Shown one piece after another: positions 10,087 to 38,717 of a DNA stretch of 64,000 nucleotides. The notes under the pieces are model-generated. The model saw only the letters and a list, made by a program, of their open reading frames with translations, was not told where the DNA came from and did not search any database. Position 1 is the first letter of the stretch, and each line of letters begins with the position of its first letter. The position numbers and the translations under genes were made by a program. Origin of the DNA: an uncultured Gammaproteobacteria bacterium (GTDB taxonomy: Bacteria; Patescibacteriota; Microgenomatia; Levybacterales; UBA12049); NCBI GenBank assembly GCA_965230895.1, contig OZ246394.1, positions 29,723-93,722 on the forward strand. The letters are read 5' to 3'.

Positions 10087-13053
10087 ATGAGTAAGACTCC
10101 AGAATCACGAGATGTACCTTCATCAATTTCACGCTCATTCGAACCAGGATCTGCAGATGCTGCTGTTCCAAAACGCTCTCGAATAGTTCCGCTTTCGGAT
10201 AGAGGTATTGCTCCACGTCCACGAGTGCGTTCTCTGCCTCCTGAAGTGACGGCTGCGAGAACTTACTTCCAGGGTTTGCAAAGAGAACTAAAACTTGATA
10301 CCTCAGATGATCCACAAGAACGAGCTGAAAACAGAGAATTACGCCAAGAGGTTTTAAAAGATGTGCGTGAACAAGACCAGGATTTTCATTCAGCTCAAGG
10401 AATAGTAGTAGCCGAAGCGCAAAAGCATCACGATGAGCGAGTTGAAGAACAAGGTGCTGAAGCTCATGAGTATTTTGCCACATATGCCGCAATGCTGAGA
10501 AGCGAACCTGATGTTGAGGTGCGACGTGCATTTGCGGATGAAGAGAAGGAAAGTGAGGAGTTTCAACACGCACGAAATGCACTACGAAGAGAACCAACTC
10601 CTGAAACGGTAGATTCTGAAGTAGATCATGAAGAAGTTTCCACAACAACCAAGGAAATCGTCGTCGTTGAAACCGGGCGTCTGCCTGAAATTGTTGTTGC
10701 TACCGAAGTGGTTGAAATTGATCCAAATATAAAGATTCGGGAAGACATAACGTGGGCAAACGAAGTTCTTGAATCTTCCAGTAATCTTCCTATGAGTGAA
10801 GAGGATGCTGGAAGCGGCTTGACAAAAATGGAGTATATAGAAGGTAAAGTAACCGGTATGTGGCAAGATCCGCAGCGTACTGAAGCAGCATTACGTATTT
10901 GGAAAGCACACAGTGGTTCAGCCGATTTATATGATCGCGCAAAAGAAATAGTGGGCAACGATGTCCAAGCCCGTTGGCAAGACGTGACACCTTCACAACT
11001 TGCTGCTTTTACTACAATTAATGCTCGTGGTGGTTATGTTGCAGAGGATTTTGGCGACATATTAAAACAATATTTTACCGGACCAAGCGATATGAAGCAG
11101 CGAGTTGATGCATATTATAAATTTGCTGATGCTGCAATAGATATCGTTGATGATGCAGAGGCTAGTAGAAAAGCAGCACAAATTGGTGTCTTTGAAACTG
11201 ATATTATTCCTCGTGACTCTGAATTTCTTACAGATATACACCTTGCAAGTTTAATGGGCTTTTACGACGAAGAGATGCGGGTAAAAGCGAGTATAGCAAG
11301 TCAAGTTGTTATGGCAGGAATTGCACGTTCTTCGGGGATTGATTATGTAAGTATTAAAGAGACAAACGATCAAGCTCTGCTCGCAAAGCTTCAAGGCGCT
11401 CGTCTAAACCGAGTATTTATTGCGATGAGGGACAGATCGATTCGAGAAAATTTTGCGGGGTATAGTAAAGTGAAAAATGTCTTGGTTCCAAAGCTTGAAG
11501 CGATGTTTGGTCCGAGCGGGAGCGGCACAACCCAATCAGTCCATGCAAAGATATATGAGAATCCTGAAATGATAGAAAAGGATCAATTTTTAGAAACAAT
11601 AGGAGGCATTACTGAAAATTATGGTTCTGATCCTATGTACGCAAAGTTTATGGACAAGTTGCAGTTACGTGCTACAGGAGGTGTGGTCCGTGTGCAAAAC
11701 GCTGAGCAGATAAGACAAACAGGTGAAACGCCTATGTTTATCAGCTTTAAAATACCTGGTACAGAATGTGTTCTCGATGTATGTATGCCAGCGTCTTTGT
11801 CTGCAGATAGAGGAAAACTTATAGAACAATTTATTGCTGACACAAGACCCATTGAAAGTGTAGCAGCGGACGATATTGGAATGTATACCTCATCTCTTAA
11901 GGTAAATGGGAAAGATGTTTATGCGATCTATCGCTCTCCTGATAAGCCAGAAGCTGAGCGGCATGATATTGATATGCTCAATGCGATCGGCTTTCCTGAA
12001 GTATCAGCTGAAAATATCCAAGTAGATAATGCCGAGCTAGCAAGAAAAATTGATACAGAACAAATTCGATTCACAAACACGCGTGGTTTCCGCGTCCCTT
12101 TGCAACATCCTGCACTAACTGCACTTGGGTATGAATATGTTGATTTCCGTAAAGATCCAAACCTTCTTCGTACGATGAATGCAACAATTCACGTAGACGG
12201 AGTTGACGTCACTGTAAAGCTTGATCAAGATTTCCGAATCGATCTTGAAGGTAAACACGCTGATATATCTACTATTGGACCTTCTGTACAAAATGTCTTC
12301 CTCTCTATTTTGTATCCAGCATTGTGTGCAGTCCATGCAAAAGATGAATCAGGAGAGGCAGTAGAAATTAATAAAATTGTAGCTTCAAGAGTGGGATATA
12401 TTGGTTTTGTCCGTGAAGGATATAACTTCTCAGCAGATCAAGCTGGATATCTTTTGCGCGATGAAGGAAAAGATCTAGCCACAATTTCTGAACAAAGAAA
12501 AGTGAACGGAGAGACGAGGAACTCTACGTATACAAGACCGAAAGAATCTGATGATCCGTCGCTTCCACCAGTGAAGATTTTCATACCATTGCCTGATGCT
12601 ACCTTCCCTATGCCTGAAGTCTCAACAAGTTCATTAACGATCATTGCACCACAGCCAGAGCAAAGACCTGTTAAGCAAGGACATCCATTAGGATTGACCG
12701 ATCTTGAAGAATATGAGCTTCAGACAAATCCTTATAGAGGATTTCAAGGAGCTTTACATGAGATAGATATGGAACTATCTTATATTTCTAAGGATCGTGC
12801 ACGGTTACTAAGGGAACGTGAAATAGCTCAACGTGAAGGCAGATCTGATGCAGGCGTTACAAAGAAATTGCAGGAGCTTTTTGACGATGAGAAGAGTTTG
12901 CGTGGATCGGTAACAAGCTTTGAAAAAGCGCTTCGTGAGGAATTTGATACAACGCCTCAGGCACGAACGATGAAGTTCCGAGATCGTCAGAGGTTGTCAG
13001 TACATGAGTTATTAGATTTGCTGGCAGCGCAGCATGATGAAGAGCAAGCGTAA
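10087..13053 (+). CDS. island leader-family protein 1 (988 aa, acidic)
   Basis: N-term 'SRSFEPGSADAAVPKRSRIVPLSD...PRVRSLPP'; -10 'tttgttataat' 13 nt upstream of ATG; no known domain. Confidence 0.6.
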   Translation: MSKTPESRDVPSSISRSFEPGSADAAVPKRSRIVPLSDRGIAPRPRVRSLPPEVTAARTYFQGLQRELKLDTSDDPQERAENRELRQEVLKDVREQDQDFHSAQGIVVAEAQKHHDERVEEQGAEAHEYFATYAAMLRSEPDVEVRRAFADEEKESEEFQHARNALRREPTPETVDSEVDHEEVSTTTKEIVVVETGRLPEIVVATEVVEIDPNIKIREDITWANEVLESSSNLPMSEEDAGSGLTKMEYIEGKVTGMWQDPQRTEAALRIWKAHSGSADLYDRAKEIVGNDVQARWQDVTPSQLAAFTTINARGGYVAEDFGDILKQYFTGPSDMKQRVDAYYKFADAAIDIVDDAEASRKAAQIGVFETDIIPRDSEFLTDIHLASLMGFYDEEMRVKASIASQVVMAGIARSSGIDYVSIKETNDQALLAKLQGARLNRVFIAMRDRSIRENFAGYSKVKNVLVPKLEAMFGPSGSGTTQSVHAKIYENPEMIEKDQFLETIGGITENYGSDPMYAKFMDKLQLRATGGVVRVQNAEQIRQTGETPMFISFKIPGTECVLDVCMPASLSADRGKLIEQFIADTRPIESVAADDIGMYTSSLKVNGKDVYAIYRSPDKPEAERHDIDMLNAIGFPEVSAENIQVDNAELARKIDTEQIRFTNTRGFRVPLQHPALTALGYEYVDFRKDPNLLRTMNATIHVDGVDVTVKLDQDFRIDLEGKHADISTIGPSVQNVFLSILYPALCAVHAKDESGEAVEINKIVASRVGYIGFVREGYNFSADQAGYLLRDEGKDLATISEQRKVNGETRNSTYTRPKESDDPSLPPVKIFIPLPDATFPMPEVSTSSLTIIAPQPEQRPVKQGHPLGLTDLEEYELQTNPYRGFQGALHEIDMELSYISKDRARLLREREIAQREGRSDAGVTKKLQELFDDEKSLRGSVTSFEKALREEFDTTPQARTMKFRDRQRLSVHELLDLLAAQHDEEQA

Positions 13054-13117
13054 AACAAGAGTAGACTTATAGTTCAGATTGTATTATATAACTAGATTCG
13101 CTATAATACCGATTGCT

Positions 13118-37494: not shown

Positions 37495-37532
37495 CTCATT
37501 TTAGAGTCTTATAGTTTGTGTTAAAATAGCCT

Positions 37533-38717
37533 ATGGCAATAAATAGAGAATTTGATGGGAGAACTCCAATCGGAGGAGCTGAAAGAACTTTTAGCTCGGG
37601 CGTGGAGGGTGCACCACCGCCAGTACAAAGAATTGTTTCTTTACCGCAAGATGGCGCTGTCCGTGGGCGTCAGGAGCGAGAAGGTTTTTCATTTACGACA
37701 GTTACTGTGGCAGATGCTCAAAATAAAACCTTATTTCGTGGCAAGATGGCACCTATTCAATGGCAAGAACCTCAGCATACTGCAGCAGTACACACAACGC
37801 ATCCTGAAATAATGGCTTCAGTCTTTGCTGAAGGTCCTGCTGCTTTTGACAAGCTTGATACAGATGGAGTGTTGCAAGTAACGTCTGCGGATAGTCATGT
37901 CTTGCGTAGTTTTTGGTACGACAGTGATCGGCAGCTCGTGACAGTAGCTCGCGGGGTAGTTTTTTTCAGAGAAAAGATGGCTGAAGAAGATGTTGCGCCA
38001 ATTGAATTACCGTCTCCTCCAAAAGGAAGTTCTAATTCTCCTATTGAGATGAGTTCTGCCGTGGAATTTGAATTTAAAGAATCACCCCTATATAGAAAAA
38101 ATCCAAGGATACAACAATCCTTTGCTACATTGGGATTTGATATGGACGAAGCTCGAAGAATATTTCCAACACCCAAGAGTTTTGCTGCAACGTTAGACCA
38201 GCTTCGAGAGGCTGATACTTCAGGTCTTTATTATCCTGAAGTATCACTATTGCCAGTAAGCCAGATTGATGCGAAGCCTTATCTTGAATCCTATGCAGCG
38301 GGGAAGCATCCTGTCGGTACTCATGGTTTTTATCATTACACACATGATACATCTTCTGATCACGCTGGGACGCTTATGACATTTGGCAAAAATATGATGG
38401 ATCTTATCCAAGGATATTCTCAAGTCATTTTGGAACGAAGAGGTGATACAGTAACATTTGCAGATACAGAACCTATAGATATGTTTACTGGTTTGGCGGG
38501 GCTTGAGGATTTAGATGATATAAATAACATAGTTCCTCATCGTATCGTGCGCGCTCTAGAGGATGCTGATCGTTTAAAATCCACGAAGATAGCTCAATGG
38601 ATGCATGCAAAGGGTATGATCCATCGTTGGGATGAGCTTACCCCAGAAGTCCTTTCTCAAGGGCTTCGCGCGGAAGCAAAAGCGAGATTACATGATTACA
38701 ATAATGGAAGAAGATGA
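37533..38717 (+). CDS. island leader-family protein, paralog of 28827-30128
   Basis: 'MAINREFDGRTPIGGAERTFSSGVEGAPPPVQRIVSLPQDG'; shared blocks with the 28827 gene. Confidence 0.6.
   Translation: MAINREFDGRTPIGGAERTFSSGVEGAPPPVQRIVSLPQDGAVRGRQEREGFSFTTVTVADAQNKTLFRGKMAPIQWQEPQHTAAVHTTHPEIMASVFAEGPAAFDKLDTDGVLQVTSADSHVLRSFWYDSDRQLVTVARGVVFFREKMAEEDVAPIELPSPPKGSSNSPIEMSSAVEFEFKESPLYRKNPRIQQSFATLGFDMDEARRIFPTPKSFAATLDQLREADTSGLYYPEVSLLPVSQIDAKPYLESYAAGKHPVGTHGFYHYTHDTSSDHAGTLMTFGKNMMDLIQGYSQVILERRGDTVTFADTEPIDMFTGLAGLEDLDDINNIVPHRIVRALEDADRLKSTKIAQWMHAKGMIHRWDELTPEVLSQGLRAEAKARLHDYNNGRR

Follow-up and report, generated by a model that had tools for sequence, protein, structure and literature searches.

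A conserved N-terminal leader on all 18 genes of a saccharibacterial genomic island: a candidate protein-addressing peptide

Cargo-loading peptides of encapsulins and bacterial microcompartments are short and disordered, stand at either the N- or the C-terminus, and occur on unrelated cargo proteins that are encoded side by side. The X-Tfe effectors of bacteria-killing type IV secretion systems (T4SS) in Xanthomonadales similarly join a conserved terminal module, the XVIPCD, to unrelated cargo, and are delivered by contact into other bacteria. A large part of bacterial diversity consists of Patescibacteria, Saccharibacteria included, and these live as parasites of other bacteria. Saccharibacteria are obligate epibionts of Actinobacteria, and the T4SS is widespread among them; transposon sequencing (Tn-seq) of Southlakia epibionticum found this system to be essential for epibiotic growth, with no substrates identified (PMC10633639, PMC12102498). 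Here, we analyze a 64-kb stretch of contig OZ246394.1 (termed the window; coordinates refer to the whole of it unless another sequence is named), whose prolyl-tRNA synthetase (ProRS) has its relatives in Saccharibacteria/Saccharimonadales. It contains an island (10087-38717) in which all gene-sized open reading frames (ORFs) begin with the same leader of about 45 residues. This tag is restricted to the island and selected at the amino-acid level, and we consider it a candidate address for the proteins that carry it.

Eighteen gene-sized ORFs fill the interval 10087-38717 with intergenic gaps of 0-285 nt, 16 on the forward (+) strand and two on the reverse (-) strand (15418-16881 and 16943-20401). 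All 18 carry the leader, which every other ORF of the window lacks, within their first 30-55 residues. A preliminary description of the locus had counted 19 consecutive genes, on both strands; the strands and the continuity of the array are as described, but the number is 18. In the N-terminal alignment the leader resolves into three short motifs: M-x-x-(N)-R-E-(S)-F-(D/E)-G at the extreme N-terminus, (R)-S-F about 15 residues later, and [DE]-G-x-P-(P-P)-x-x-[RK]-[RK]-[IV]-[VR]-S-[PL]-(D), of which the core Ser falls at residue 31-51 in every member. Many leaders have two to three copies of the unit basic-[IV]-[VR]-S-[PL] in the 40 residues that follow. The composition is 46% Gly, Pro, Arg, and Ser taken together, the net charge ranges from -2 to +4 (mostly 0 to +4), and the leader is intrinsically disordered. 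The parts that follow it are unrelated to each other, with the sole exception of one paralog pair (28827 and 37533, 28% identity), in agreement with the earlier view of a conserved tag on variable cargo.

A profile hidden Markov model (HMM) built from the 18 leaders scored its own ORFs at 19.9-63.5 bits and the next best ORF at 6.7 bits, against a background of 677 six-frame ORFs of at least 40 aa from the 64-kb window. Because a model tested on its own 18 leaders is circular, the search was repeated with each leader left out in turn: 9 leaders were found again at E<1e-4, a further 5 came up at E 0.003-0.05, and 4 were marginal (10087, 15418, 20474, and 23121). A core expression, F.{3,10}[DE][GAT].{0,2}P.{2,8}[IV][VRI][SPN][PLVA], matches 13 of the 18 island N-termini, including 3 of the 4 marginal ones, and has no further match in the 60,328 six-frame residues of the window; in the ORFs of 80 related Saccharibacteria loci it occurs at 5 sites in a total of 1.33 million residues.

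None of the leaders contains a hydrophobic stretch (maximum Kyte-Doolittle(11) <=0.95), which bears out the earlier statement that the tag is neither a Sec nor a twin-arginine translocation (Tat) signal. The stretch of about 7-15 hydrophobic residues (h-region) that Sec and lipoprotein signals have within the first ~35 positions is missing. The twin basic residues might recall the Tat motif S/T-R-R-x-F-L-K, which precedes an h-region and an A-x-A site, but in the leader they lead into [IV]-V-S-P-D and polar residues with no h-region. The Gly/Pro/Arg/Ser-rich, non-helical leader also differs from substrates of the type VII secretion system (T7SS), which have a helical hairpin with WXG / YxxxD/E and EssC/EccC encoded next to them, and no WXG100, LXG, or PE/PPE family was found by Pfam among the island proteins. 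Pfam, NCBIfam (all proteins but the product of gene 7), PHROGs (10 proteins), and PADLOC (six proteins) gave no significant match over residues 1-55, so that, as the preliminary description had proposed, the leader belongs to no annotated family in these collections.

The distribution of the leader is very narrow. An exhaustive HMMER search with the leader profile among 1,835,955,588 representative proteins returned 14 matches at E<=0.001, of which 12 are the island's own proteins and 2 are unrelated repeat proteins. The leader is absent from all 80 related proS loci examined, and a screen of these same loci for other common N- or C-terminal tags pointed to a single genome, described below. 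A word-indexed search with the leader alignment gave no match, the leader probably being too short for that index, and word-indexed searches with the island ATPase and the 988-aa protein (genes 5 and 1 below) returned only self-matches. As far as public data go, the leader thus appears to be unique to this species, and, with the two repeat proteins as the only other matches among the representatives, it is not an ordinary low-complexity artefact, an alternative that had been raised at the outset.

The leaders had also been described as conserved at the nucleotide level, implying a recent common origin or gene conversion, and this could not be upheld. The 14-mer AGAATTGTTTCTCC has one exact copy in the window (31404); at four other sites of the island it is matched with 1-2 mismatches, the chance expectation being 1.03 matches for the whole window. 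The codons of most leaders are different: across them, the conserved Ser is written as TCT, TCA, TCC, TCG, AGT, and AGC, and Arg as both CGN and AGA. Since synonymous sites are scrambled, even to the point of switches between TCN and AGY serine codons, the motif is kept by selection on the peptide, and on this codon evidence gene conversion or recent duplication was rejected as the origin of all leaders. Recognizable copying is visible at three genes only (34615, 36121, and 37533), which are preceded by a duplicated 35-nt promoter module, TCTTATAGTTTGTGnTAAAnTA, with an extended -10 element (34574-34608, 36082-36116, and 37494-37528; 74-86% identity). Module and leader were duplicated together in front of unrelated cargos, which indicates that promoter-plus-leader cassettes have been duplicated and recombined onto new genes. 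The leader is modular. Within the island and beyond it, most genes lack a Shine-Dalgarno sequence and have a TATAAT-like box 6-12 nt ahead of the ATG, suggesting leaderless mRNAs throughout the genome. Examples of the box lie upstream of 1997, 7960, 10087, 25038, 52534, and 60873(-).

The closest genome, CAZDOJ010000001.1 (L006), is a saccharibacterium by synteny and by its ProRS, which is 94% identical to that of the window. It is syntenic with positions 1-10007 of the window at 78-87% nucleotide identity, and the synteny breaks exactly at the left edge of the island. At 12108-20849 of its own sequence, L006 has five consecutive ORFs on the + strand that lack the N-terminal leader and share a C-terminal tag instead; the array comprises at least five ORFs, as it runs on past the end of the examined locus. 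The tag has the consensus ...W.G..DD.EGP[RQK][RKQ][ST]L followed by the stop codon, i.e. W-x-G-acidic-GP-[RKQ][RKQ]-[ST]-L-COOH, and the five proteins terminate in VDWSGQNDDVEGPRRSL, SWDIEAGPEDQDPPKKTL, IDWTGEGDDHSGPNQTL, IDWNGEDDPEGPQKSL, and IFDGSNDGQSGPRRSL. One of them is a Pyr_redox flavoprotein. Another, of 997 aa (16306-19299), is the ortholog of the first gene of the island (34% identity over 844 residues, E 1.5e-140), and the two differ in the end that is tagged: the window protein has a 54-residue N-terminal extension, which is the leader, and no C-terminal one, and the reverse holds for the L006 ortholog, which has a tagged C-terminal extension of 49 residues. The C-termini of the proteins in the window's island have nothing in common.

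In both tags an aromatic residue comes first, then a run of acidic residues, G-P, a pair of basic or polar residues, and Ser/Thr-Leu. A joint pattern, albeit drawn up post hoc, shows strong enrichment in either tag type, and the leader of the window's ATPase (FSGAETTPTRPPIRSL) matches the L006-type pattern. A common origin of N-terminal leader and C-terminal tag is no more than plausible from their sequences. The flanking proteins of the two genomes are mostly 85-94% identical (61% for the small ORF at 7570), whereas the islands have one protein in common, the 34% identical ortholog above, the remainder being without counterpart. Such near-complete turnover beside conserved flanks is typical of genes for host interaction.

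Three of the 18 cargos could be identified, two as sigma factors and one as a HerA-type ATPase. The other 15 have no significant Pfam match, even at E<=5, and no match in NCBIfam except that the 116-aa product of gene 7 was outside that scan. A PHROGs scan of 10 island proteins gave a single match, a family of unknown function on the ATPase, a PADLOC scan of six gave nothing beyond the ATPase, and searches of PDB sequences with five of the ORFans found nothing significant. AlphaFold2 models were unusable, with pLDDT (predicted local distance difference test) values of 36.0 for the 37533/28827 pair and 36.7 for the ATPase core. By hydropathy scan, none of the island proteins contains a transmembrane-like 19-mer or a classical N-terminal signal; their isoelectric points are 4.2-7.3, mostly acidic. 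Cysteine is five-fold rarer in the island than in the rest of the window (0.11% vs 0.54%, p = 8e-8), with 10 cysteines in 9,118 residues and none in 12 of the 18 proteins. Cysteine exclusion has been described for exported proteins of Gram-positives (PMC2823432).

Selection at the protein level, presence on every island gene, and placement at either end of the same cargo together point to a portable address that is read in trans, and the same three facts speak against its being a folded domain, an element at the nucleic-acid level, or a neutral remnant. We tentatively favor the reading, without claiming even odds for it, that the leader is such a trans-recognised address, most likely for export independent of Sec and Tat with contact-dependent delivery into an actinobacterial host. 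In this model, the leader would act as a peptide that is recognized during or after translation by a factor whose gene lies outside the island, and would give a set of lineage-specific, fast-evolving, soluble proteins one common fate; the tagged proteins would then pass by cell contact into the actinobacterial host, where the two sigma factors, the HerA ATPase, and the acidic ORFans could serve as a host-takeover toolkit. We place the destination in the host on account of the epibiont lifestyle, the fast evolution of the cargo, the soluble, mostly acidic, Cys-poor character of the proteins, and the members that resemble those of the host phylum. Recognition in trans, export, and the host as destination are what we infer from these properties. 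A bolder version, which we regard as possible yet rather unlikely, is that leader and C-terminal tag represent the first recognizable effector-translocation signal of Patescibacteria, by which a phage-like takeover kit enters the host via the T4SS or an undescribed pathway. The sigma factors could then redirect the RNA polymerase of the host, and the co-evolution of tag and receptor would be fast enough to leave every species with a version of its own. Considered as the signal of a T4SS substrate, the tag of the window stands at the N-terminus and not at the C-terminus, and the L006 variant is C-terminal.

Several observations weigh against export. Neither a secretion apparatus (VirB4, VirB6, or coupling protein) nor a membrane protein was found in the island or in the rest of the 64 kb, and the ATPase of the island is of the HerA type and not a recognizable secretion ATPase. 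Being species-specific, the tag cannot serve as a general signal for the T4SS that is widespread in Patescibacteria. The tagged proteins include sigma factors and an ATPase, which normally work inside the cell. Gene 11 has a lipoprotein-type signal about 100 residues past its leader, which would imply the Sec route and a cytoplasmic leader. Cysteine depletion and acidity fit disordered ORFan proteins as well, and the classical exported proteins of the window, a penicillin-binding protein (PBP) and a GH18 protein, do contain cysteine. Lastly, the apparent resemblance of leader and L006 tag rests on the post hoc pattern, and a profile-profile comparison of the two with hhalign was not significant (E 0.4).

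The intracellular workers among the cargo would be easier to understand if the leader were a conditional degron, through which an AAA+ protease or adaptor of the ClpXP, ClpCP, or Lon type holds the island products in an unstable state until they are stabilized by a signal, for instance contact with the host. Degrons are short, disordered, and active at either terminus, which matches the swap between N- and C-terminus, and the L006 endings PRRSL and PKKTL recall the basic-basic-x-hydrophobic C-motif of MuA-type ClpX substrates reportedly described by Flynn et al. in 2003. A degron is also compatible with the internal lipoprotein signal of the 27992-28753 product. However, known degrons measure 3-11 residues, compared with the 45 residues of a tripartite leader with repeated motifs, we know of no degron common to a whole island of 18 unrelated genes, and the cysteine depletion, the rapid turnover, and the actinobacterial affinity of the cargo would be left unexplained; we therefore consider a degron improbable. 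Much the same low probability applies to a recruitment motif that tethers the proteins in a multivalent manner to one scaffold, compartment, particle, or complex, possibly around the hexameric HerA ATPase, be it by encapsulin-like, condensate-like, or vesicle-like loading or in one large complex. The loading peptides introduced above are a precedent for disordered peptides at either terminus on clustered, unrelated cargo, the two to three copies of basic-[IV]V-S-[PL] in many leaders suggest avidity for an oligomer, and the genes are clustered and have similar sigma-70-type promoters. Yet the island contains no detectable shell, capsid, sheath, or tube family and has no phage relatives in IMG/VR or INPHARED, the ATPase is itself tagged, and a set of 18 cargos that includes sigma factors is unlike the known loading systems.

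Two further explanations appear more doubtful still. The Ser is among the best-conserved positions of the leader (Ser/Thr in L006), with basic residues at -3/-4 or -1/-2, and the repeated motifs resemble multisite phosphorylation, so that a kinase acting on Ser/Thr after basic residues (R-R-I-V-S-P or R-R-S-L-COOH) could toggle the island proteins jointly. Against such a phospho-switch, which has little probability in our view, neither the island nor the window encodes a kinase or phospho-binding domain (the gene at 34615..35835, labelled kinase-like in the preliminary description, has no support as such, in contrast to the sigma factors and the ATPase it had also named), and the two upstream motifs and the terminal placement would have no explanation. 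At a marginally lower level still we place a passive expression cassette, in which new genes of a leaderless-mRNA genome are fused to an existing promoter, ATG, and first codons, and the leader hitchhikes without a function. The TATAAT box 6-12 nt before the ATG and the lack of Shine-Dalgarno sequences throughout the genome would suit it, as would the promoter-plus-leader module duplicated on three unrelated cargos and the recurrent A-rich start AAT AGA GAA. A neutral remnant, however, would not hold 45 residues while synonymous sites scramble and is not expected on all 18 genes, and the C-terminal tags of L006 would again be unaccounted for. Of all these explanations, we continue to favor the address read in trans, with the reservations given above.

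The island opens on the + strand with gene 1 (10087..13053), a 988-aa ORFan with its leader at 10087-10197 (SRSFEPGSADAAVPKRSRIVPLSD) and a second copy, RVRSLP, followed by gene 2 (13118..14524, +), a 468-aa ORFan (leader 13118-13231, GSFTNATAETQPMRPHRVVSLQ). A metagenome scan with the alignment of gene 1 and its L006 ortholog gave no match. Gene 3 (14560..15417, +; leader 14560-14718, RAFAGSGEGPVPARLKVRAL ... RHIVSPA) encodes a sigma factor of the extracytoplasmic function (ECF) type, with regions 2 and 4 at residues 122-276 behind an N-terminal extension of ~115 aa. It matches r2/r4 in Pfam and the sigma70-ECF superfamily of NCBIfam above cut-off, and SigE/SigH in the PDB at 5e-24, its nearest relatives being the actinobacterial SigE/SigH. 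No anti-sigma partner could be recognized next to it, the convergent gene 4 (15418..16881, -; 487-aa ORFan, leader 16756-16881, GTFRTVTDGPAPVRTRVRSLP) being without match.

Gene 5 (16943..20401, -) encodes a soluble 1152-aa ATPase of the HerA/FtsK superfamily (leader 20297-20401, ISFSGAETTPTRPPIRSLE), with a Walker A motif GAGKT and an hhhhDE motif. Its start was set at 20401, because the stretch up to the ATG at 20815 overlaps the next gene and translates to nonsense. It matches Pfam DUF87 (9.4e-6, above cut-off), PADLOC mad8 (3e-12), and HerA models, and is 24.6% identical over 618 aa to a Streptomyces ATP-binding protein, whereas its scores with T4SS ATPases are far below cut-off (TraD 20.7 vs 366 bits; VirB4 16.7 vs 643). 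Among the matches listed, its relatives are found only on plasmids of Streptomyces, Nocardia, Embleya, and Nonomuraea, where an ADP-ribosyltransferase gene is the neighbor, and on a metagenome contig of 65% GC. This contig was the one locus found by a metagenome scan with the ATPase alignment; it is not from Saccharibacteria and has no tags. The closest annotated homolog lies on the Streptomyces clavuligerus plasmid NZ_CP065235.1 (L086, 298558-303223) in a four-gene cluster of hypothetical protein, ATPase, ADP-ribosyltransferase, and small hypothetical protein, which looks like an uncharacterised conflict system; these neighbors (ADP-ribosyltransferase etc.) have no counterparts in the island.

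The following genes are all on the + strand. Gene 6 (20474..21817) encodes a 447-aa protein with a Pro-rich N-terminal part and a degenerate leader (20474-20614, GAFGAQNGGAEGAPPNRPPVRNPE). The 116-aa product of gene 7 (21823..22173) begins with MRESFRDG...RAFANTSGAEGAPPPLLK, a leader in which motifs 1 and 2 and the EGAPPP part are present and the IVSP end is lacking. Gene 8 (22231..23103; 290 aa, leader 22231-22350, MNREFGQG...RSFSASNGGADGPVPARPRRIVSPD) and gene 9 (23121..24926; 601 aa, acidic, leader 23121-23234, TPSFSGETRPALPESGIVSPD, second copy RHVISPQ) are ORFans. Gene 10 (25038..27833) encodes 931 aa with a pI of 4.2 and internal repeats; its leader, from 25038 on, has three basic-[IV][IV]S[PL] copies (RIISP, RRIVSP, and RRVVSL). 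Repeats spaced by 36 and 72 nt at 26912-27066 of this gene encode DVPTMADAKDPD-like units. Gene 11 (27992..28753; 253 aa, leader 27992-28102, RSFTSSGEGAVPARIGRVRSVD) has a lipoprotein-type signal, KGIKVKAATVAAGAAISLAAC, at residues ~105-128, behind the leader and a linker rich in Ala, Pro, and Lys, suggesting either a signal-anchor topology with a cytoplasmic leader or two alternative products.

Gene 12 (28827..30128, +; 433 aa, leader 28827-28934, TSFRGEEALPPLPAKIVSPI) is the paralog of gene 18 (37533..38717, +; 394 aa, leader 37533-37646, MAINREFDG...RTFSSGVEGAPPPVQRIVSLP). Between them, again on the + strand, are four ORFans: gene 13 (30131..31156; 341 aa) with a short leader (30131-30229, GAFQQGEVRPALPKHIVSAD), gene 14 (31299..32990; 563 aa, leader 31299-31421, MAVHNESFDG...RSFSQEATDAPPPRVRRIVSPD) with the top HMM score, gene 15 (33048..34568; 506 aa, leader 33048-33170, GSFGPGSSESVPARTRKVVSPD), and gene 16 (34615..35835; 406 aa, leader 34615-34734, MPNNRESFEG...RSFGPTTPDGSPPPLRRIVSLN), which has the first of the three promoter modules. 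The last of the intervening genes, gene 17 (36121..37494, +; leader 36121-36243, RSFSASIPEGTPPPLRKVVSPD, second copy RRVVPL), encodes a group-3-like sigma factor with SigB/F/G-like regions 2-4 (Pfam r2/r3/r4) at residues 173-392, an N-terminal extension of ~140 aa before them, and a C-terminal helix-turn-helix. The promoters of the island genes look sigma-70-type, and the island sigma factors may therefore act on targets elsewhere.

Outside the island, the window contains ordinary chromosomal genes (proS, ybeY, dnaX, prs, cysS, PBP, and fba). In a distant relative (L038), proS is separated from ybeY/dnaX by ~2.4 kb with three small housekeeping genes, whereas the window has 32 kb at this site, pointing to a lineage-specific expansion. 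The island proteins are also present in four Logan assemblies. On the left, the island is bordered by a Pro/Thr-rich gene without leader (9193..9990, -), for which tblastn found a match in only one of the 80 related loci, that of L006 (11261-12082, -); the L006 copy has a hydrophobic C-terminal tail, and the protein may belong to the system, e.g. as a membrane partner. The right border is formed by three genes without leader, encoding a DHH-family protein (38764-39672, +), a HIT protein (39749-40159, +), and an alpha/beta-hydrolase (40156-41217, -) with weak similarity to S33, the prolyl aminopeptidase family; as a matter of speculation, the latter is a candidate processor of the Pro-rich leaders. 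This block (38764..41217) has no counterparts in the loci of the relatives, and core synteny (ybeY, dnaX) is resumed at 41520. A degenerate copy of 38748-38870, i.e. of the promoter and first ~40 codons of the DHH gene, lies at 35884..36000 (+; 83-96% identity, one 1-nt indel), which implies insertion or duplication, in front of the DHH gene, of a 2.86-kb block that contains the last two genes of the island.

The GC content at the first and second codon positions is higher in the island than in the housekeeping genes (0.61/0.45 vs 0.53/0.36), whereas at the third position it is lower (0.25 vs 0.31), and codon usage agrees with the genome. A GC excess restricted to positions 1 and 2 suggests that the island has long been resident in an AT-rich genome, and in view of the low third-position value a recent transfer from a high-GC donor was rejected. 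The island has no tRNA, Rfam element, or att-like flanking repeat, and no integrase or phage gene. A phage or plasmid origin was rejected, as there were no relatives in IMG/VR or INPHARED and no informative PHROGs, and only the ATPase matches plasmids, which are actinobacterial.

A tag on a whole island of fast-evolving soluble proteins would provide a concrete candidate effector set, and since the peptide is portable and can be fused to reporters, the question of T4SS substrates becomes testable. Even as a degron or a loading peptide the tag would, to our knowledge, be new. The locus also shows how such modules spread, namely as promoter-plus-leader cassettes in what is probably a leaderless-mRNA genome, and a short portable tag could help the engineering of these hard-to-manipulate bacteria. 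We know of no other tripartite, terminus-swappable address on every gene of one genomic island.

Compared with the systems mentioned at the beginning, the island is like the X-Tfe effectors in the placement of a conserved module at one end of unrelated cargo, at the C-terminus in the case of the L006 variant. The XVIPCD, however, folds into a domain of ~120 residues at the C-terminus and binds VirD4, in diderm bacteria, whereas the island tag comprises 20-45 disordered residues at the N-terminus, has no type IV coupling protein or VirB4 nearby, and shows no sequence similarity to it (no Pfam match). With the loading peptides of encapsulins and microcompartments the tag has in common that it is short, disordered, portable, suited to either terminus, and borne by neighboring unrelated cargo, but its motif is another one, its set is far larger (18 proteins, with sigma factors and an ATPase), and no shell was detected: Pfam and PHROGs revealed no HK97-fold encapsulin or capsid gene, the structural models (pLDDT 36-37) being of no use for folds. 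Head-targeting propeptides of phages (the T4 capsid targeting sequence (CTS) or the phiKZ type) likewise find no parallel, as no phage structural, protease, or terminase gene was found among the 10 island proteins scanned with PHROGs, nor any relative in IMG/VR or INPHARED.

The conserved N-termini with variable C-terminal cargo and clustered genes are reminiscent of MIX effectors of the type VI secretion system and of LXG and PE/PPE proteins of the T7SS, but these have folded helical domains, partner proteins, and machinery or WXG genes next to them, and nothing of this kind was detected here. The ClpX/SspB tags (ssrA, the MuA C-terminus, and N-motifs) are also terminal and disordered, occur at either end, and combine basic with hydrophobic residues, but they are much shorter, and no island is known in which every gene carries one. 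Among eukaryotes, the PEXEL (RxLxE/Q/D) of Plasmodium and the RxLR-dEER of oomycetes are short linear motifs that lie 30-50 residues behind the N-terminus of effectors of obligate parasites, and these effectors are otherwise unrelated and form large families that are clustered and evolve fast. The motifs lie behind a classical Sec signal and use eukaryotic secretory pathways, whereas the island leader has no hydrophobic signal and is found in a monoderm bacterium. The peroxisomal targeting signals PTS1 and PTS2 direct folded soluble cargo to one destination by a C-terminal tripeptide of the SKL type, comparable with the [RKQ]-[ST]-L-COOH end in L006, or by an N-terminal nonapeptide, comparable with the motif in the window, although the analogy with a eukaryotic organelle system is one of logic only and the order is basic-S-L here but S-basic-L there. 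Each of the known families considered thus fails at least one testable defining feature, and the nearest analogies of the leader are functional, not familial.

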